This document shows, piece after piece, positions 27,538 to 39,122 of a stretch of 39,122 bases of DNA. The notes below the pieces were generated by a model, which was not told the DNA's origin, did not search any database, and saw nothing but the letters and a program-made list of their open reading frames with translations. Each line of letters opens with the position of its first letter. The stretch's first letter is position 1. Location of the stretch: the IMG/VR virus record IMGVR_UViG_3300038607_000022; one strand, 5' to 3'. The stretch is from a virus. The translations under genes were made by a program, and so were the position numbers.

Positions 27538-27816
27538 TTATGTGATAGCTAAAACATCATCAACACTTTTTATTATTTCATATTCTCCCTGCCACTCATT
27601 CATAAATCTAATTTCTCCATCTGACAATTTTTGCTGGCTAGGTGGTTTGCTACCGTCTTTTATTTCTATCGCTATCGTCCTGCCATCCTTGCTAACAATA
27701 ATGTCGCAACAGTTTTTTAGTTGACTGATTATTAGCACGTACCAACCAAGATCACGAAAAGCTTTTACTATCTCTTTTTGATTTGCGTCAACTTTCGCGG
27801 CTCGCCTAAACGACAT
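27538..27816 (-). CDS. PD-(D/E)XK nuclease (VRR-NUC / Hjc-like), putative Holliday junction resolvase
   Basis: KVDANQKEIVKAFRDLGW ... CDIIV...IAIEIKDG fits a D...E-x-K core. 92 aa. Confidence 0.6.
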   Translation of the reverse strand: MSFRRAAKVDANQKEIVKAFRDLGWYVLIISQLKNCCDIIVSKDGRTIAIEIKDGSKPPSQQKLSDGEIRFMNEWQGEYEIIKSVDDVLAIT

Positions 27817-28093
27817 TTAATAAACCCTCAACTTGTTTTAATAATTCTTTTTCAGTGCCAAAATTAGCCTCAAAAGACTTTCTTCCGGCATGTACAGCTA
27901 CACCATTGTTACCAGTTCTATGGTGAATGTGGCACAAAGGTATCACTTCAAAATTTGATGCTCTCTTACCCATAGTTCCGTTGCCGATATGGTGTATTTC
28001 TGCTGGCATATCCATAAACCCATGATTGCGACAAACAATGCAGCCAAGAGACGCTACTTTGTCCATGTGTTCTTTTTCTTTTTTATTCGCCAT
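27806..28093 (-). CDS. ref: Ref-like RecA-dependent HNH nuclease
   Basis: LGCIVC...EIHHI...IPLCHIHHRTGNNGVAVHAGRKSFEANFGTEKELL matches the P1 Ref-type pattern. Confidence 0.7.
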   Translation of the reverse strand: MANKKEKEHMDKVASLGCIVCRNHGFMDMPAEIHHIGNGTMGKRASNFEVIPLCHIHHRTGNNGVAVHAGRKSFEANFGTEKELLKQVEGLLNVV

Positions 28094-32150: not shown

Positions 32151-33448
32151 TATTGGTCCATATAGCTTAATAAGTGAGAAATAACATCAACGGTCCACCC
32201 GTTGCCGGTCATTTTGTATAATTGCGTGTTGCTGATACCGGCGTCTAACAGTGTATTAATATGGTGTTCTGGTATTGTTTGCAGTCTCATACACTCTCGA
32301 GGTGTGAGTTTTCGATATTTAAGGTTATTAATATCGCTATTGACAGCAAACTTTGGTGCGTGTGATGTTGTCAAAGTGTCAGTTTTGCCGGCTCCAGATT
32401 TTAATATTCTGCCTAGCTCGCTTATTCCTGATTTTCTAGCGTCGTTTTTGTGCGGCCTATACCCTCTATCATCTTCTGTTATACCTTTAACGCGCTCATT
32501 ATCATTGACACTTACAACAAGGTGATTATTGTGCTCCCAGGCGTTAGCGCTCAGGCAAGGTGTTTTACCGTTTTCTGCTCTAATTCCACCAGGGTTATTG
32601 CCTCTAGGTGTTTGCATGATTAACAAATTATCTTTTTGCACCGTGGTTATGGTGTTGGTTTTATCATCGCCTCTCACTTCGATGCGCTGTTCGGTTTTTA
32701 GGTTGGGGTTATAATCATCCCGTTTGCCGGTTTCAGGGTTAATCTTGCGCCCTATCATTGCACCGCATTTTATGTAATCTCCTTGACGGCCATTTTTTAC
32801 ATACTCCATAGCTGACAAATTCTTAGCTTTACCGCCTAAATCGTCACGTAGTATTTTTTCATTCCGCTTACAGAATTTACTCGACATATAGGTAAAATCT
32901 CCATCTGCTTCAATAATATCTTTAAGCACAATCCCTTTGTCTTCTGGCTGCTCACATGCCCAGCTAGTCCAATAATAACGATTACGATTCTGAGCAGACA
33001 CTAACGCGCTATTAATTAAAATTTTATGCACTTTACCTAGCGCTTGCTCTGTGTGGCGTGTGATATATTGTTCAAATTCCTTTTTCATCTTGACGTTTTC
33101 AATTAAGAAATGCGCTTTAGGGTTATTTTGTTTTACATGCTGCATTATCTCTAACATTGTCCAAAACAACATTCCGCGCTCGTCTTTATCGCCCAACTGC
33201 TTACCAGCCATTGACCATGCCTGACAGGGAAAACCACCGGTAACTAAATTAATACTGGGCCAGTCAATATCCCACTCGCGCCACTTGGTTACATCGCCTA
33301 ACTGAATTGTATCAGGGTAAAGCGCCTGGGCTGCTTTGATTGCGTGTTTATCAATTTCGGCGCTGTAGTATTTATTAACTTCAATACCTAGGTTTTCTAG
33401 AGCCATATAGCCGCATGACATGCCGTTGAACAAACTTAAAATATTCAT
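32150..33448 (-). CDS. DNA (cytosine-5)-methyltransferase, orphan
   Basis: Motif I LFNGMSCG, motif IV GGFPCQAWS, motif VI ENV, C-terminal TPRECMRLQTIP and GNGWTV. Long variable region. Confidence 0.9.
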   Translation of the reverse strand: MNILSLFNGMSCGYMALENLGIEVNKYYSAEIDKHAIKAAQALYPDTIQLGDVTKWREWDIDWPSINLVTGGFPCQAWSMAGKQLGDKDERGMLFWTMLEIMQHVKQNNPKAHFLIENVKMKKEFEQYITRHTEQALGKVHKILINSALVSAQNRNRYYWTSWACEQPEDKGIVLKDIIEADGDFTYMSSKFCKRNEKILRDDLGGKAKNLSAMEYVKNGRQGDYIKCGAMIGRKINPETGKRDDYNPNLKTEQRIEVRGDDKTNTITTVQKDNLLIMQTPRGNNPGGIRAENGKTPCLSANAWEHNNHLVVSVNDNERVKGITEDDRGYRPHKNDARKSGISELGRILKSGAGKTDTLTTSHAPKFAVNSDINNLKYRKLTPRECMRLQTIPEHHINTLLDAGISNTQLYKMTGNGWTVDVISHLLSYMDQ

Positions 33449-34092
33449 AATCTATTCTCTATTAGTTGTTGTGCTTTTGATTTAATCTGCTCAGACCTTT
33501 TTATTAACGAAGATTTGATTGGCTCTTTGTTTTTTAAGGCTTCAACGTAAACCACATGGGACTTGTAAGACAGGTAGGCAGACTCAGCCTCTTCGACTGA
33601 GTTGAAGTATCCTAAATTGATTATCTTTCCATTCCTGTTACATCTAGATCTAAACCTCTTGCCGCAAGATCCTATTGAAACACCAGTGGGAAGGCTCCTC
33701 CCTCTTTCAGGGATGGCAAAAAGCTTATTGAGCTCGCTGGAAATAAATACACAAGTAGACGGGGAATAAACTTTATTTCCACAAGACAATATATCCTTAT
33801 CAAGCTCTTTTCCTTCCCATTCCTGCTTCATCATCCAAGCTTTAAATGAAGAGAATGTCAACCACTCATCACACACATAGCAATCTTTATATGTGCCGTG
33901 CTCTTCTGTGTATTTACCGTAATAGCACCGATGAAGCATCTGTTTCCATCTAGTGTAAAACGGGCAGGATATTCTTTTCCCTTTTTCACTTAATTGAACT
34001 ATGTAATCGGCGTCATTGATGCCTTTGCCGTAAACCAGGCTTCTTCTACATAATGACTTACCTTTTGCTTTTATCTCTTTAAATTTAGACAC
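33445..34092 (-). CDS. AP2-domain DNA-binding protein (homing-endonuclease-associated type)
   Basis: LPTGVS...GKRFRSRCNRNGKIINLGYFNSVEEAESAY is AP2-like. Cys/Trp-rich N-terminal region. GTG start. Confidence 0.5.
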   Translation of the reverse strand: MSKFKEIKAKGKSLCRRSLVYGKGINDADYIVQLSEKGKRISCPFYTRWKQMLHRCYYGKYTEEHGTYKDCYVCDEWLTFSSFKAWMMKQEWEGKELDKDILSCGNKVYSPSTCVFISSELNKLFAIPERGRSLPTGVSIGSCGKRFRSRCNRNGKIINLGYFNSVEEAESAYLSYKSHVVYVEALKNKEPIKSSLIKRSEQIKSKAQQLIENRL

Positions 34093-34499
34093 TACAAACC
34101 CCTTTGAATTAAATCAGCGCAGACATTGTTTATCTCATTTTTGATCATATTTCTAAATCTTTCAAGATAAATACTGGGCAGTTCATTTTCCTCAAGACTC
34201 AATACTGGCCACCCCATCATTTGGGCTCTTCTTTGTTTCCAGTCCCAAGCCGTCCAATAAGTCATTTCATTGAGCTTCTTTATAAGGTTTAAATTTTCAT
34301 TTATGGCTTCGGTCATTTTTTCAGCTTCATAGCCGTGCATATTGAAATGGTAAGAACATGTTTTTCTTGCGGCGCTGACGCTTGCTAATAATTTACAATT
34401 GTGCTGTTCGCATCGACCCCAATAACTAACCTTTTCGGGCTTTTGCTCTTGATTTACCTTCTCGTAAAGCTTTTCAACAGCAGCGGTTTTACTCACCAT
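34092..34499 (-). CDS. Hypothetical protein
   Basis: Translationally coupled in the operon. Cys/His-containing N-terminal part. Confidence 0.6.
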   Translation of the reverse strand: MVSKTAAVEKLYEKVNQEQKPEKVSYWGRCEQHNCKLLASVSAARKTCSYHFNMHGYEAEKMTEAINENLNLIKKLNEMTYWTAWDWKQRRAQMMGWPVLSLEENELPSIYLERFRNMIKNEINNVCADLIQRGL

Positions 34500-35001
34500 G
34501 ATAATACCCGTCTAAAACTTTTGATAAATTAGCAGGCTTAACCAGCCATTCTATTGTTAACTTAAAAGGCTTTCTGTCACCAGCCTGAACTTTACCCATC
34601 AAGAAATCACTTTGCTTGACTGCTTCAAATAAATCGCGCCAAGACTGTTCAGTAAAAAAGTCAGCGCGTGTCAGACGGTCTAACTTACCTTTTAAATCAT
34701 CAGATATTACCGTTTTGAGCTGCGCGTATGTCCCTTGATATGTTTCGTTGTAGATATCGCAAACACGCTGGGCTGATACGTTTACTGCTTTCTGCTGGCG
34801 CTTAACTTTACTCGCTCCGCCTTTAACCTCATCAACTCTTTCTGTTATTTTAAAGAATAGGTCTATTGGCATTTTAAACACACCATCAATAATTGCGTGC
34901 TCATCTGTAACCCATGTGACAGTCATCACTTCATTTGCTGGGACTTCCACTTTTAAATCGTCTGTTATTTGACGATAGGGAAAATTAAACCTTACCTTCA
35001 C
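34489..35001 (-). CDS. Hypothetical protein, possible replication initiation/organiser protein (tentative)
   Basis: GTG 35001 is preceded by GGAGA 7 nt upstream. The C-terminal ...FKLTIEWLVKPANLSKVLDGYY recalls phage replication-associated proteins. The track start at 35040 overlaps the upstream gene. Confidence 0.5.
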   Translation of the reverse strand: MKVRFNFPYRQITDDLKVEVPANEVMTVTWVTDEHAIIDGVFKMPIDLFFKITERVDEVKGGASKVKRQQKAVNVSAQRVCDIYNETYQGTYAQLKTVISDDLKGKLDRLTRADFFTEQSWRDLFEAVKQSDFLMGKVQAGDRKPFKLTIEWLVKPANLSKVLDGYYHGE

Positions 35002-35012
35002 TTTATTGTCTC

Positions 35013-35210
35013 CTAATAAATTATGCTTTCTTTTCCACACTCGCCACAGTTGACTCTAGCTCCATAAAAATCTTTTTTTCCAGTGGCGTCTAAAAGGTCA
35101 GCGTCTTCGCCAGTGAATTTGTTTGTTAATCCACAATGCCCACACTTAAAACCAACCGGTAGAAGTCCGCGACCATCAGAGTACACTTCCAACATGTCAC
35201 TAAGAATCAT
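35013..35210 (-). CDS. Zinc-ribbon protein
   Basis: CGHC...CGEC pairs. AGGAG RBS. Confidence 0.6.
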   Translation of the reverse strand: MILSDMLEVYSDGRGLLPVGFKCGHCGLTNKFTGEDADLLDATGKKDFYGARVNCGECGKESIIY

Positions 35211-35244: not shown

Positions 35245-35445
35245 CTATTTTAAAACAGATAAGTTTCCATGATGACAACCACGTGTTTCTCCTGATTGCC
35301 ACTGAATTAAAGGAATAGCTCTTTCAGGCTCAGAGCGTGTACTAATGTCGCCAGAAGTGCAATTGTTGGTGATGCCAACAATCATTCCAATTTCTCCATT
35401 GCTACTCTTTACTAAAATACCATGCTTACAGTCTTTCAATTCCAT
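35245..35445 (-). CDS. Hypothetical protein, first gene of the leftward operon
   Basis: ATG 35445 is preceded by TGGAGA. The track start at 35469 is GTG without an RBS. Confidence 0.55.
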   Translation of the reverse strand: MELKDCKHGILVKSSNGEIGMIVGITNNCTSGDISTRSEPERAIPLIQWQSGETRGCHHGNLSVLK

Positions 35446-35531
35446 TTTATTCTCCAATAAATTATTCACACCCCAAACTCTACAACAAAAAATAGCGTTA
35501 TGTGATCCGACCAGTTAAATTAAATTTATAG

Positions 35532-35560
35532 TTGATTTATTGCGCAGGATTGGCGATAAT
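35532..35560 (+). promoter_or_regulatory. Rightward sigma70 promoter (TTGATT-N17-GATAAT)
   Basis: Hexamers at 35532-35537 and 35555-35560 in the 570-bp divergent intergenic region. Confidence 0.5.
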
Positions 35561-35566
35561 TTATTT

Positions 35567-35670
35567 GTTATTTGGAGTCGTGTCTGAATGATGAATAAGG
35601 TTTTATAGGTATTTCTGGCATTAACGACGATTAATGCACACGACCAGAGATACCCATAAAGCCTTTTTTA
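35567..35670 (+). ncRNA. Leader RNA or sRNA candidate: 22-bp hairpin plus T-run, with a 6-codon mini-ORF
   Basis: 35597-35618 pairs with 35644-35665 (19 Watson-Crick pairs, 2 G-U, 1 mismatch). Inner hairpin 35619-35636. TTTTTTATTA tail. Mini-ORF ATGATGAATAAGGTTTTATAG at 35588-35608. Confidence 0.5.
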
Positions 35671-36040
35671 TTACCTCAAATTCCCTCCAAGCAACATGCA
35701 ATTGCTGTAAAGCCGATTCGGGCATTGCATTATAAATCTGATACTGAGTTACTAGTACAATCAGACAGTGCGGCAATGTTTAAGCTGAGAGCCTATATTG
35801 GATTAATCCTTGGGTGATACTCAATAGTTTAAACGTGGAAAGCTCTGCTAGTGTCGAAAGATAAAAAGTTTCCAACCAGAAAGAAAGATTCTGGCCTTCA
35901 AAGCTCTACAGACCGCTAGGTTATTGCTAGAAGTGAAAAGCCTTTAGTTGAATTTTAATAATTCTCTTTAGGCTTATTATGCCTTTAAGATACGACATAG
36001 GTTTTGCTAGACACTTATCTATAACTAATAAGGTGATTAA

Positions 36041-36391
36041 ATGAGAAATACAGAAGCGGTAACGATAACTTACGAATACCTAAACAAGTACAAAACACCA
36101 AAGGGAGGCTACAACAGAAAACAGGTTGAAGCACTTGGACTGAGCTGGCCGCTAGTCTCTGGCTGGAAAGGTGAATTAATAGGAAAGGTGCTCACTGCCG
36201 AGAAAGCAAATATTTTTGAGTCAGCAGCTAAAAAACCGAATAAAAAACAGCCTAAGCAAAGCTTTAAGATTGACGATTGTATTGAATATTTATTCAAAAA
36301 TACTGATAAGTTAACAATGCAAAATATAGCTAAACTTAGATTTGTTGAAAGAAAATGGCGTGATGTTTGCGGATTAACACATAAGGAATAG
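36041..36391 (+). CDS. Hypothetical protein, first gene of the rightward operon
   Basis: AAGGTG RBS. 116 aa. Confidence 0.65.
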   Translation: MRNTEAVTITYEYLNKYKTPKGGYNRKQVEALGLSWPLVSGWKGELIGKVLTAEKANIFESAAKKPNKKQPKQSFKIDDCIEYLFKNTDKLTMQNIAKLRFVERKWRDVCGLTHKE

Positions 36392-38422: not shown

Positions 38423-38426
38423 CTCG

Positions 38427-38457
38427 CCACCTTAAGAGGTTTATCCTCTTGAAGTGG
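38427..38457 (+). terminator. Strong hairpin (13-bp stem with 1 mismatch and 1 G-U) after the 38294 ORF
   Basis: CCACCTTAAGAGG-TTTAT-CCTCTTGAAGTGG followed by ATGTTATGTGTT. Confidence 0.5.
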
Positions 38458-38493
38458 ATGTTATGTGTTAATTAATTGATTGGAGAGAAAACC

Positions 38494-38736
38494 ATGATTA
38501 AAAGAAAAGGACAGATAGTTCCTAAATATTTATGCAGAAGCATAGAGAAAAAGGCTCAACATCTGGTTAAATTTGGTGCTGATGTTGAAATAACCGGAAA
38601 AACAATAAAGATGCTAACTGATGGGTATGCTATTTGTATTCCAGACGTTAAGCATGTGTTGAAAAAGAAGAACCAGAGAACTGTAAAAGGGTTTGTTTGT
38701 GAAGGGCTAACGCTGATTGGGTACAGAGAAACATAA
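38494..38736 (+). CDS. Hypothetical protein (80 aa)
   Basis: ATG 38494 is preceded by GGAGAG. The track start at 38476 is TTG. Confidence 0.6.
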   Translation: MIKRKGQIVPKYLCRSIEKKAQHLVKFGADVEITGKTIKMLTDGYAICIPDVKHVLKKKNQRTVKGFVCEGLTLIGYRET

Positions 38737-38814
38737 CCTTTTAAATAAGCGGGCGCGGCTGTTTGCGCTCCGTTTGATTTTGTTGTTAGCAGTGAAATAG
38801 CGAGGCACAGCATT

Positions 38815-38976: not shown

Positions 38977-38995
38977 TTCCTGCTAACACGTAATT

Positions 38996-39122
38996 ACGGA
39001 GCGCTTGCGTCTCCGTTAATGAGGGTTATGAACTCATCGGAGCAGTTAAATAGAGTTTATGTAGTAATATAAATCTAAAGCTTAACTAGAGATAAGAAAA
39101 TGAAAACAATACAAGATACAGA
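38996..39122. repeat. Terminal direct repeat, identical to 1-127
   Basis: Exact identity with the window start. Confidence 0.95.

Follow-up and report, generated by a model that had tools for sequence, protein, structure and literature searches.

A stretch of viral DNA of 39,122 nucleotides (IMG/VR record IMGVR_UViG_3300038607_000022; hereinafter, the window) encodes a member of a family of phage RNAs that combines strong covariation with an unusual architecture and that we could not find described. Every member of the family shares a sigma-70-like promoter, a G-U-rich 5' hairpin (P1) and, 0-3 nt further on, a long hairpin (P2) that is followed by at least six U residues. We give roughly an even chance to the reading of this RNA as a portable promoter-proximal termination checkpoint, which would control read-through and would also yield a small RNA. 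The elements of the module in the window are the following:

35532-35560, plus strand: sigma-70-like promoter, TTGATT-N17-GATAAT, with a predicted transcription start at about 35565-35568
35564-35675, plus strand: entire RNA module, the extent of the match to the covariance model R1 built here (98.6 bits, E ~1e-20)
35565-35594, plus strand: P1, the G-U-rich 5' hairpin (5' strand, 35565-35576; loop L1, 35577-35582/83; 3' strand, 35583-35594)
35577-35583, plus strand: 5' half of the pseudoknot, GUCGUGU, in the P1 loop, complementary to 35638-35644
35597-35618, plus strand: 5' strand of P2a, the long lower stem of P2, AAGGTTTTATAGGTATTTCTGG, pairing with 35644-35665
35618-35637, plus strand: P2b, the upper stem of P2 (35618-35624 with 35631-35637, 7 bp), and its apical loop (35625-35630)
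35638-35644, plus strand: 3' half of the pseudoknot, ACACGAC, in the 3'-side internal loop between P2b and P2a
35644-35665, plus strand: 3' strand of P2a, a pairing seen in the window and supported by the family alignment
35664-35672, plus strand: U-tract, TTTTTTATT, where the short RNA is predicted to end

Family members and search scope

We found 32 members of the family in marine phage sequences, 31 in metagenomic phage contigs (the window counted) and one in the cultured Vibrio phage 1.131.O. The 30 further members from metagenomic and IMG/VR phage contigs score 63-109 bits, and the member from the Vibrio phage, which carries the pseudoknot GUGAAAG/CUUUCAC, scores 27 bits. No second plus-strand copy of the module was detected with R1 in the 39 kb. 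Scanning the whole window at the Rfam gathering thresholds gave no match, and permissive Rfam scans of the window region and nine homologous loci gave only chance matches of the microRNA type on the long hairpin; scattered weak matches to unrelated families appeared elsewhere in the same permissive scans. Neither Rfam 15 nor the literature searched holds a match to, or a description of, the family. Among GenBank phages, blastn with the window region, the class A leader (see below) and the class B leader returned no match. Exact and degenerate hairpin scans of 185,579 genomes and the JGI metagenomes recovered a single true relative, L012, on a contig shared with L001; the other twelve loci from these scans (four genome, eight metagenome) are single-arm chance matches. 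A pattern search of viral contigs for the inner stem likewise returned chance matches only, the first rightward gene used as a probe for related loci in viral contigs returned nothing, and a tRNA and tmRNA search found none.

A promoter followed by a long U-tailed hairpin

The promoter-like site, the six-codon ORF, the 22-bp stem, the U-tail and a second pairing, all reported in a sequence-only reading of the window, were recovered at the same positions, and the check for conservation and covariation in related genomes that this reading had proposed came out in its favor: the hairpin is conserved, and 27 of the 41 pairs of the whole structure change on both sides, compared to 15.2 in shuffles (0/500) and 9-14 when the partners are slid, with 93.6% of 1211 cells paired.

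The promoter of the window agrees with the consensus at 9 of 12 positions; taken in this region alone, where 4 sites are found and 4.8 are expected, it is no better than chance. In the homologues, a promoter-like site occurs at the same distance upstream of the RNA, with at least 8 of 12 positions matching in 27/31 and at least 9 of 12 in 23/31, and usually reads TTGAAA or TTGATA, N16-17, TATAAT.

In the window, P2a consists of 19 Watson-Crick pairs, 2 U-G pairs and 1 A-C mismatch; shuffles of the window contain no such pair of arms (expected number, 0.00). Across the members, 96.4% of P2a is paired, and both sides change in 12 of the 18 pairs counted. P2b is variable in sequence, and all five of its aligned pairs change on both sides. 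Directly after the stem, at least six T residues are present in 31/31 members, on the plus strand only. The predicted fold energy is -36.8 kcal/mol (z = -5.6) for the plus strand and -27.0 kcal/mol (z = -3.7) for the minus strand. As in intrinsic terminators, a GG/CC closes the stem and is followed by at least six U in 31/31 members; a generic terminator scanner missed the hairpin solely through its loop limit of 3-8 nt. On these features, the hairpin is most likely the intrinsic terminator of a predicted plus-strand RNA of ~105 nt with its own promoter. It departs from the compact stem of such terminators (~5-14 bp) in having a lower stem of 21-22 bp and an upper stem of 5-7 bp separated by an internal loop, and the length of the long stem is conserved across the members. 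The stem is thus far longer than those of typical intrinsic terminators, which suggests that it has a further or another role, for example as a substrate for a protein or for RNase III, or in providing geometry for the pseudoknot.

P1 and a hypervariable but complementary pseudoknot

P1 is present in the minimum-energy fold, and its helices are 83-98% paired among 30 distinct sequences; in an 11-sequence set, it contains 36 G-U cells and 5 A-C cells. Both this hairpin and the structured leader RNA described below had been missed in the sequence-only reading. P1 and P2 are separated by 0-3 nt in the folded members.

The pseudoknot comprises 6-7 bp across the family, with all 7 pairs changing on both sides and 94.6% of the cells paired; cognate loops match far better than non-cognate ones (0/20000 permutations as good). 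Conserved sequence sits in the stems, and the unpaired parts of the RNA are the most variable. The mean pairwise identity of the pseudoknot halves is ~0.5, equal to that of the unconstrained apical region, and complementarity is nevertheless kept. An example is provided by the near-identical members L041 and L042, which show 11 differences within 59 nt of the RNA, as opposed to 0 in the following 743 nt; five of these differences map to the P1 loop, three to the internal loop and two to the P2b loop. Between the two, the pseudoknot GUGGCG/CGCCAC becomes GCGGA/UCCGC, with complementarity preserved. The clustering of the differences could reflect a single recombination tract instead of selection.

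The 7-bp pairing of 35577-35583 with 35638-35644 is exact as originally noticed, but its 3' half does not lie at the base of the stem, where it had been placed; it is the 3'-side internal loop at the top of P2a. Nor is it an alternative that competes with the hairpin: it is a covarying pseudoknot, and because the hairpin leaves its internal loop unpaired, the long stem, with which it has only nucleotide 35644 in common, can form alongside it.

The strand under selection is indicated by the homologues. Because G-U cells outnumber A-C cells 68 to 6, the molecule selected is, judging by these substitutions, the plus-strand RNA; 19 pair columns are ever G-U and 4 are ever A-C. Selection in the rightward transcript, as concluded in the sequence-only reading, is thereby borne out, by the homologues only. 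The argument originally offered, from strand-specific wobble pairs in the window itself, is weak, because an A-C on the plus strand becomes a G-U on the minus strand: the window alone has 2 G-U and 1 A-C on the plus strand vs 1 G-U and 2 A-C on the minus strand.

A structured leader and variable operons downstream of the module

The RNA module is always co-oriented with the downstream genes and is always followed by a gene-free leader of 250-490 nt. In the window, this part of the locus includes:

35685-35696, plus strand: candidate partner segment 'P0', complementary to the P1 5' strand at 35566-35577; this pairing is possible only in the read-through RNA
35700-35995, plus strand: class A leader RNA, ~300 nt, conserved and structured (nhmmer E = 8e-81)
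36041-36391, plus strand: first rightward gene, 116 aa, with no hits in Pfam or PHROGs

The distance of ~370 nt between the module and the first gene had been given correctly, but the stretch is not empty, as it holds this separate conserved RNA. The class A leader is 95.1% paired, with both-sided changes in 22 of 55 pairs compared to 11.5 in shuffles (0/500), and has 89 G-U cells vs 2 A-C cells; it has no match in Rfam. At least three unrelated conserved classes of leaders occur downstream of the module; a class C leader is present in cultured phages. Locus L031 combines the same promoter and a class A leader with a 5' structure that is not that of the module and has no U-tract. An outer helix formed by P0 was rejected as a general feature: it reached significance in the window (z = -2.8), L001 and L037 and in no other member, and its z averaged -0.8 across 23 members.

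We saw no promoter that is consistently conserved in the interval from the terminator to the gene. The sole internal candidate is a weak site at 35933-35962, in a variable loop of a leader hairpin, which could drive the window operon independently. In the window and in L034, the module holds the only conserved promoter facing the downstream genes.

The family of the 116-aa protein co-occurs with the class A leader and not with the RNA module in general; comparison of its AlphaFold model (pLDDT 85.7) with the PDB gave no fold match. The module is portable, and the genes downstream of it encode a helicase (L048, L054, L062), portal or head-tail adaptor proteins (L044, L049, L047, L059), HNH endonucleases or the 116-aa family. 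In the window, early-type genes follow the module, and lysis and structural genes lie further along the same strand; the operon there takes in recombination genes, then lysis genes and finally structural genes. The terminase and portal of this phage are ordinary, and no lysogeny genes were seen. The upstream neighbors vary among the members (methylase, HNH, small unknown proteins, divergent genes). The window module lies in a divergent intergenic region, beside a replication-initiator-like gene (34489-35040); in most members, the flanking genes are co-oriented and not divergent. An antisense role against a leftward leader was rejected as a general role, the upstream genes of most members being co-oriented.

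A predicted termination checkpoint and its alternatives

The module had originally been taken for either an attenuator or an sRNA of about 100 nt. The promoter and the U-tailed hairpin are kept as a unit of ~105 nt, and as this unit precedes a long leader and an operon, both proposals are still viable; the translational control invoked for the attenuator is not (see below). P1 begins at about the predicted transcription start, and P2 comprises the lower stem of 21-22 bp, a 7-nt 3'-side internal loop and a short upper stem, with the pseudoknot joining the P1 loop to the P2 internal loop. In the checkpoint reading, this assembly would form a checkpoint between a constitutive-looking promoter and the long conserved leader that heads a phage operon. 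By default, RNA polymerase would halt at the U-tract and release the short RNA, and transcription of the leader and the genes would need read-through. The P1/pseudoknot assembly, which abuts the terminator, probably sets or switches the efficiency of termination. Where transcription starts, where the RNA ends and how efficiently it terminates are predicted from sequence. Entire phage operons have their single entry point at the module, which is therefore likely to be a master control point in marine phages of the Vibrio and Pseudoalteromonas types, and the cultured member, Vibrio phage 1.131.O on V. breoganii, renders these questions directly testable. The element could also supply compact, orthogonal terminator parts.

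The pseudoknot resembles an allele-specific recognition code, so the short RNA may act in trans on nascent leaders of the same code. A specific switch of this kind, which we consider tentative and on the whole unlikely, would have capture of the internal loop by the P1 loop lead to read-through, and terminated RNA of the same allele restore termination in trans. The tethered loop would be unable to rotate through two helical turns, so that the 21-bp stem may fail to wind up, and abundant terminated RNA of the same allele would compete for the pseudoknot segments in trans. Easy action in trans is argued against by the engagement of both pseudoknot halves in cis in the folded short RNA. If true, this would be an RNA-only self/non-self switch for autoregulation or for exclusion of like-coded co-infecting phages, which related phages would evade by code swapping. 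A pseudoknot that switches fast yet is always complementary suggests a specificity code at the level of RNA, beyond the classical temperate systems P1, P4 and N15.

The same anatomy might instead belong to a stand-alone gene for a trans-acting sRNA, with the ~105-nt RNA as the effector (a regulator directed at host or phage, a protein decoy or a multimerizing RNA) and the position at the head of an operon incidental. The module has its own promoter even where co-oriented upstream genes could supply transcription, its terminator is strong-looking and fully conserved, it moves independently of the downstream content, and the complementarity of the loop and the internal loop could work between molecules, as in phi29 pRNA. 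Such a gene is nonetheless possible rather than probable, as the RNA contains no conserved single-stranded seed and the module always stands, co-oriented, directly before a long gene-free leader and, in the window and L034, provides the only conserved promoter that faces the downstream genes.

Under a scenario of the lambda type, the module would be a late or main promoter with a proximal terminator that is overcome by a Q-like phage antiterminator, the short RNA would be a by-product, and the RNA structure would be secondary. The layout is the same, in that a sigma-70 promoter that looks constitutive is followed by a short transcript, a strong terminator and a long operon; structural genes (portal, head-tail adaptor) follow in some members, and StxS offers a precedent (PMC7547250). 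A search of Pfam and PHROGs with the ~40 window proteins and the neighbors in other loci revealed no antiterminator of a known family, Q-like or other. Furthermore, no adjacent regulator gene is conserved, the upstream neighbors differ, genes of the early type (helicase) follow in other members, and a protein switch would leave the covarying, hypervariable pseudoknot unexplained, all of which makes this scenario distinctly unlikely.

The attenuator had been proposed to be controlled by translation or by a factor. Under translational control, it would be a leader-peptide attenuator, in which a ribosome on the mini-ORF would shield the left hairpin arm and block termination. The ORF in question is:

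35588-35608, plus strand: six-codon ORF encoding MMNKVL followed by a stop codon, ATGATGAATAAGGTTTTATAG, present in the window and no conserved feature of the family

In the window, a GGAG at 35574-35577 lies 10 nt upstream of the AUG, and the ORF extends into the left arm. An AUG is found at this site in 16/31 members; in the other 15, it is replaced by AUA, ACG, AAG and others. Six of the 16 have an immediate AUG-UAA start-stop; the ORFs of the members that have one are 1, 5 or 6 codons long, and the peptide is not conserved; in L025, outside the 31-member set, the ORF reads through the hairpin. Inside P1, the AUG is base-paired, as is the GG of the putative Shine-Dalgarno sequence. Comparison of the members thus largely refutes an attenuator of this kind, which is normally marked by a conserved, translatable leader ORF, and we regard it as very improbable.

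An element acting at the DNA level (a protein-bound palindrome, a cruciform or part of an origin between divergent operons) would suit the divergent site in the window, next to the replication-initiator-like gene, but has a negligible probability in view of the 68 to 6 asymmetry of G-U and A-C, the U-tract and promoter on one strand only, the two non-palindromic segments joined by the pseudoknot, and the co-oriented flanking genes in most members.

Comparison with known systems

Pairing of a hairpin loop with an internal loop is known from other RNAs. In the pistol ribozyme family (RF02679), a hairpin loop and an internal loop of the hairpin that comes next form a pseudoknot of ~6 bp, and in phi29 pRNA, a hairpin loop and an internal loop are complementary and covary. 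The window region and the homologous loci have no Rfam match to pistol. In pistol, the pseudoknot partner occupies the 5' side of the internal loop, as opposed to the 3' side here, and the conserved core nucleotides of the ribozyme are absent from the module. The phi29 pRNA pairs between molecules on the packaging motor of protein-primed Bacillus phages, whereas the window phage encodes an ordinary terminase and portal.

In the P4 CI (seqA/seqC), P1/P7 c4 and IsrK systems, the leader of a phage operon gives rise to an sRNA, and the choice between termination or translation and read-through is made by its short complementary segments elsewhere in that leader; those of P1 and P7 differ between heteroimmune relatives. 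The module similarly has complementary, covarying segments that vary among phages, a likeness in logic only that is no evidence of membership: the C4 family (RF01695) gave no match up to E 10 in the window region and nine homologous loci. Here, unlike in these systems, both complementary segments are located within a compact 105-nt RNA, one in a hairpin loop and the other in an internal loop, and the window phage shows no lysogeny genes. The CI RNA is processed, whereas the RNA of the module is predicted to end at the terminator, with no processing indicated by the sequence. IsrK of Gifsy-1, a short RNA that comes from a promoter-proximal phage terminator, has its own read-through isoform as its target in trans (PMC4825925).

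The module shares with the lambda PR'-tR' 6S and StxS arrangement a sigma-70 promoter, an intrinsic terminator within ~100-200 nt, a long phage operon and a short RNA. The lambda and Stx phages differ in having an adjacent Q gene and a binding and pause site embedded in the promoter, neither of which was found here; moreover, the genes downstream of the module are not always late, as they are in lambda. We know of no conserved pseudoknot in the short RNAs of the lambda 6S and StxS type. In Stx phages, StxS is a short RNA that comes from a promoter-proximal phage terminator and has a function of its own (PMC7547250).

In the 'Tug-of-war' transcriptional riboswitches and in antitermination by upstream structures, a stable secondary or tertiary structure and an intrinsic terminator are only 0-3 nt apart and do not overlap in sequence (bioRxiv 10.64898/2026.06.17.733018). 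The 0-3 nt spacer between P1 and P2 reproduces this architecture and may have a corresponding effect on termination. The module does not look like a riboswitch: its unpaired regions are the most variable, the downstream genes are mutually unrelated, and there is no Rfam hit. Next to the terminator, the known cases have a ligand-binding aptamer or else a pseudoknot that stands free; here, in contrast, no ligand is indicated, and P1 is knotted to the internal loop of the terminator itself.

Genome setting of the RNA module

The window is the ~39-kb genome of a phage from metagenome JGI 3300038605; two sequencing runs contain contigs of this phage, each 39,025 bp long. Given the flanking gene starts (leftward at ~35445-35469, rightward at 36041), the RNA module lies in a 570-nt divergent control region facing a long rightward operon, which runs past the window end and resumes from position 1. 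The features of this setting are as follows.

Features of the window around the RNA module
34489-35040, leftward: protein resembling the C-terminal part of replication initiators
Other leftward genes: HNH endonuclease, C5 cytosine methylase, NinB homologue
35564-35675, plus strand: RNA module (hairpin P1, long terminator hairpin P2, U-tract)
35700-35995, plus strand: class A leader, a structured RNA of ~300 nt that occupies most of the interval from the terminator to the first gene
36041-36391, plus strand: 116-aa protein, from a family of which 18 members were found, all metagenomic; motif KGGYNRKQVEALGLSWPLVSGWK
Rightward operon: Erf, SSB, amidase, large terminase, portal

HNH-type endonuclease genes are scattered in the leftward operon (33445-34092 and 27538-28093, both minus strand): one separates the replication genes from the C5 methylase, and two small ones are found where the operon ends. 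A perfect TATAAT is present on the minus strand at 35732-35737, within the class A leader region; the best upstream hexamer is TTGTAC, 20 nt off. If this candidate promoter is active, leftward transcripts would cross the RNA module antisense.

The promoter-like site, 6-codon mini-ORF, long hairpin and 7-bp pairing described in the sequence-only reading were all found in place. The plus strand of 35565-35675 folds with an energy of -36.8 kcal/mol (z = -5.6) vs -27.0 kcal/mol (z = -3.7) for the minus strand, and the plus-strand fold includes a hairpin absent from that description, P1 (35565-35576 with 35583-35594, loop GUCGUG). On the window alone, the promoter match (9/12) does not exceed what chance would give in this region, and the strand argument from G-U pairs is weak (2 vs 1) because an A-C mismatch turns into G-U on the opposite strand.

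A family of knotted terminator RNAs

Searches with the hairpin arms, exact and degenerate, yielded one true relative, in L001, a viral contig (39.8 kb) that is otherwise unrelated. There, the left arm is identical to that of the window, the right arm is different and the loop is unrelated; the arms form 18 Watson-Crick and 4 G-U pairs with no mismatch, on the same strand, and a near-consensus promoter (TTGAAA-N17-TATAAT) lies at the same upstream distance. Tracing homologues of the first rightward gene gave contigs L025-L043; almost every one that is long enough carries the RNA module upstream. A pattern derived from the conserved stem base retrieved 20 further viral contigs, all confirmed, with 63-102 bits, by a covariance model of the RNA module built in this analysis. 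This model detects one copy per locus, the sole copy in the whole window scoring 98.6 bits. A diverged module is present in the cultured Vibrio phage 1.131.O (host Vibrio breoganii), in an unannotated gap behind a methylase gene (promoter TTGCAC-N17-TATAAT, pseudoknot GUGAAAG/CUUUCAC).

The proposal that the plus-strand RNA is the selected molecule gains its support from the homologues: in an 11-sequence set, G-U pairs occupy 68 cells vs 6 for A-C, and 19 pair columns are ever G-U vs 4 ever A-C, an excess that marks this RNA as the selected one. P1 is made largely of G-U pairs and starts near the predicted transcription start. Six or more consecutive U come after the stem in 31/31 members; a promoter-like site matching at least 8/12 positions is found at the expected place in 27/31, several of the remaining promoters being lost to the narrow scan window or a contig end.

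In the 31-sequence alignment (30 distinct rows), which was fitted to the P1 and P2 model and is hence biased toward those helices, 93.6% of cells hold standard pairs, vs 81.3% in shuffles and 29-51% with the partners slid; 27 of the 41 pairs change on both sides, vs 15.2 in shuffles (0/500 reach 27) and 9-14 when slid. The pseudoknot lies outside this model. Both partners vary in all seven of its pairs, 94.6% of the cells are paired, and the sequences are diverse, including GUCGUGU/ACACGAC, CUAGAGC/GCUCUAG, GUGGUGC/GCACCAC, GUGGGAA/UUCCCAC and GUCGAAC/GUUCGAC. Every P1 loop complements its cognate internal loop far better than the internal loops of other members (0/20000 permutations). The 7-bp pairing (35577-35583 with 35638-35644), previously taken for a competitor of the stem, is really a pseudoknot between the P1 loop and the 3' internal loop that separates upper from lower P2; it does not compete with the stem because the hairpin leaves the internal loop unpaired, only nucleotide 35644 being common to both. 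P1 (~12 bp) and the pseudoknot (7 bp) together roughly match the lower P2 stem (21-22 bp) in length, which is compatible with a side-by-side arrangement of two helical stacks, as we infer.

The P1 5' strand (35566-35577) is also complementary to 35685-35696, 20 nt past the U-tract (12 nt, 83%). This helix, possible only in read-through RNA, would surround the terminator; its significance is limited to the window, L001 and L037 and does not extend to the family.

Translation control by the mini-ORF does not emerge as a conserved property of the family, given that the AUG in the P1 3' strand is absent from 15/31 members and that the putative ribosome-binding-site GG and the AUG are both base-paired inside P1. 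Among the 16/31 members with the AUG, ORF length varies: five codons in 8, six codons in 2, and an immediate AUG-UAA start-stop in 6.

The pseudoknot as a variable code

Between members, the pseudoknot halves are ~50% identical, equal to the unconstrained apical region, and the P1 5' strand and tail are >80% identical. In two near-identical phages, L041 (891-995) and L042 (373-476), 11 differences fall within 59 nt of the RNA (P1 loop, 5; internal loop, 3; upper-stem loop, 2; P1 3' strand, 1), vs 0 in the next 743 nt, which comprise the remaining RNA, the entire class A leader and the gene. Pseudoknot complementarity is maintained despite these changes, and the upper part of the L042 RNA is similar to that of L029, another of the contigs L025-L043. 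A new code was brought into an unchanged background, either by selection or through a short tract of recombination. The pseudoknot appears to behave as expected of a specificity determinant rather than of a merely structural helix.

A separable cassette upstream of unrelated leaders and genes

At every locus, the module has its own promoter and is followed by 250-490 gene-free nucleotides and then co-oriented genes of diverse kinds.

Genes downstream of the RNA module
DNA helicase: contigs L048, L054, L062
Portal protein: contigs L044, L049
Head-tail adaptor: contigs L047, L059
HNH endonucleases: contigs L045, L052, L061
116-aa family: window and relatives

At least three classes of gene-free leader can be told apart, each conserved and unrelated to the others. 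In class A, 95.1% of cells are paired, 22/55 pairs change on both sides vs 11.5 in shuffles (0/500), and G-U outnumbers A-C by 89 to 2 cells; Rfam holds no match. It contains near-invariant blocks, for example GTAAAGCCGATTCGGG and GTCGAAAGATAAAAAGTT, that are invariant in the ten typical members, and is more conserved than the 116-aa protein after it (32-56% identity between members). That protein has no Pfam or PHROG match, and its confident AlphaFold model (pLDDT 85.7) resembles no fold in PDB. The class B leader, ~430 nt of conserved noncoding sequence downstream of the module, is 79-99% identical among five contigs (L046, L048, L054, L062, L063) and has no match among GenBank phages. It is followed by a 79-aa gene and then, in L048, L054 and L062, the DNA helicase; L046 and L063 end earlier. 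The class C leader (~150-250 nt, conserved and noncoding) lies downstream of the module in L001, L047, L049, L050 and L059, ahead of unrelated genes (portal, adaptor, unknown). Its matches extend to unannotated gaps of phage records in GenBank (73 in all: 71 from Vibrio, cultured phages included, and 2 from Pseudoalteromonas BS5), such as L064 (MG592502.1, 1501-1657) and L065 (KX365748.1, 1501-1653).

L031 (1640-1770) combines the same promoter, here TTGAAA-N16-TACAAT, with the class A leader and carries another hairpin pair, lacking a U-tract, in place of the knotted terminator RNA; L001 and the 20 pattern-found contigs have the module without class A. The RNA module is therefore a separable cassette placed between promoter and leader.

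No consistently conserved promoter was seen in the interval between terminator and gene; the only candidate past the terminator in the window (35933-35962) falls in a variable loop of a leader hairpin. A functional leader RNA without its own promoter implies that terminator read-through happens and is important.

A second noncoding element is common to the window (38723-38790) and the otherwise unrelated L001 (10974-11036, 11814-11860), with 92% identity over 63 nt. It starts at a gene stop (ACATAACC); a G+C-rich hairpin comes next, followed by TTTGTTGTTA(TG). Comparable hairpin-plus-GTTATG units occur in the window at 38424-38470 and 38990-39035; these units may serve as terminator, promoter or processing signals between genes.

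Possible modes of action

The RNA module stands at the head of operons and unites three parts: its conserved promoter, an RNA of two hairpins tied by the pseudoknot, and a terminator tail of canonical form. Most transcripts would stop at the U-tract, and expression of the leader and gene would rely on read-through. Four routes of control can be envisaged. (a) Only 0-3 nt separate P1 from the terminator, so P1, with the pseudoknot stiffening it, could adjust or switch termination. (b) More speculatively, on topological grounds, a pseudoknot that forms ahead of the synthesis of the lower stem's 3' strand might favour read-through, since the tethered hairpin top could not rotate the two turns required for a 21-bp stem to close. 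(c) Once released, the short RNA could compete for code segments in nascent leaders, by analogy with P4 CI RNA acting on seqA/seqC and IsrK acting on its own read-through isoform (PMC4825925). (d) Some protein antiterminator could act, as with lambda PR'-tR' and StxS (PMC7547250).

Comparison with known systems

The window and nine homologous loci have no match in Rfam 15, and the RNA module is outside all catalogued families; a Q-type gene was not found among the ~40 window proteins scanned. In form and position, the module is like the phage promoter-proximal terminator RNAs lambda 6S, StxS and IsrK, and its variable complementary segments follow a logic like that of the RNA-based immunity leaders P4 CI and P1/P7 c4. 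We came across no earlier case in which a long terminator stem, an internal loop knotted to the loop of the adjacent hairpin, and rapid code switching occur together, and there is a real chance that the RNA module works by a new mechanism.
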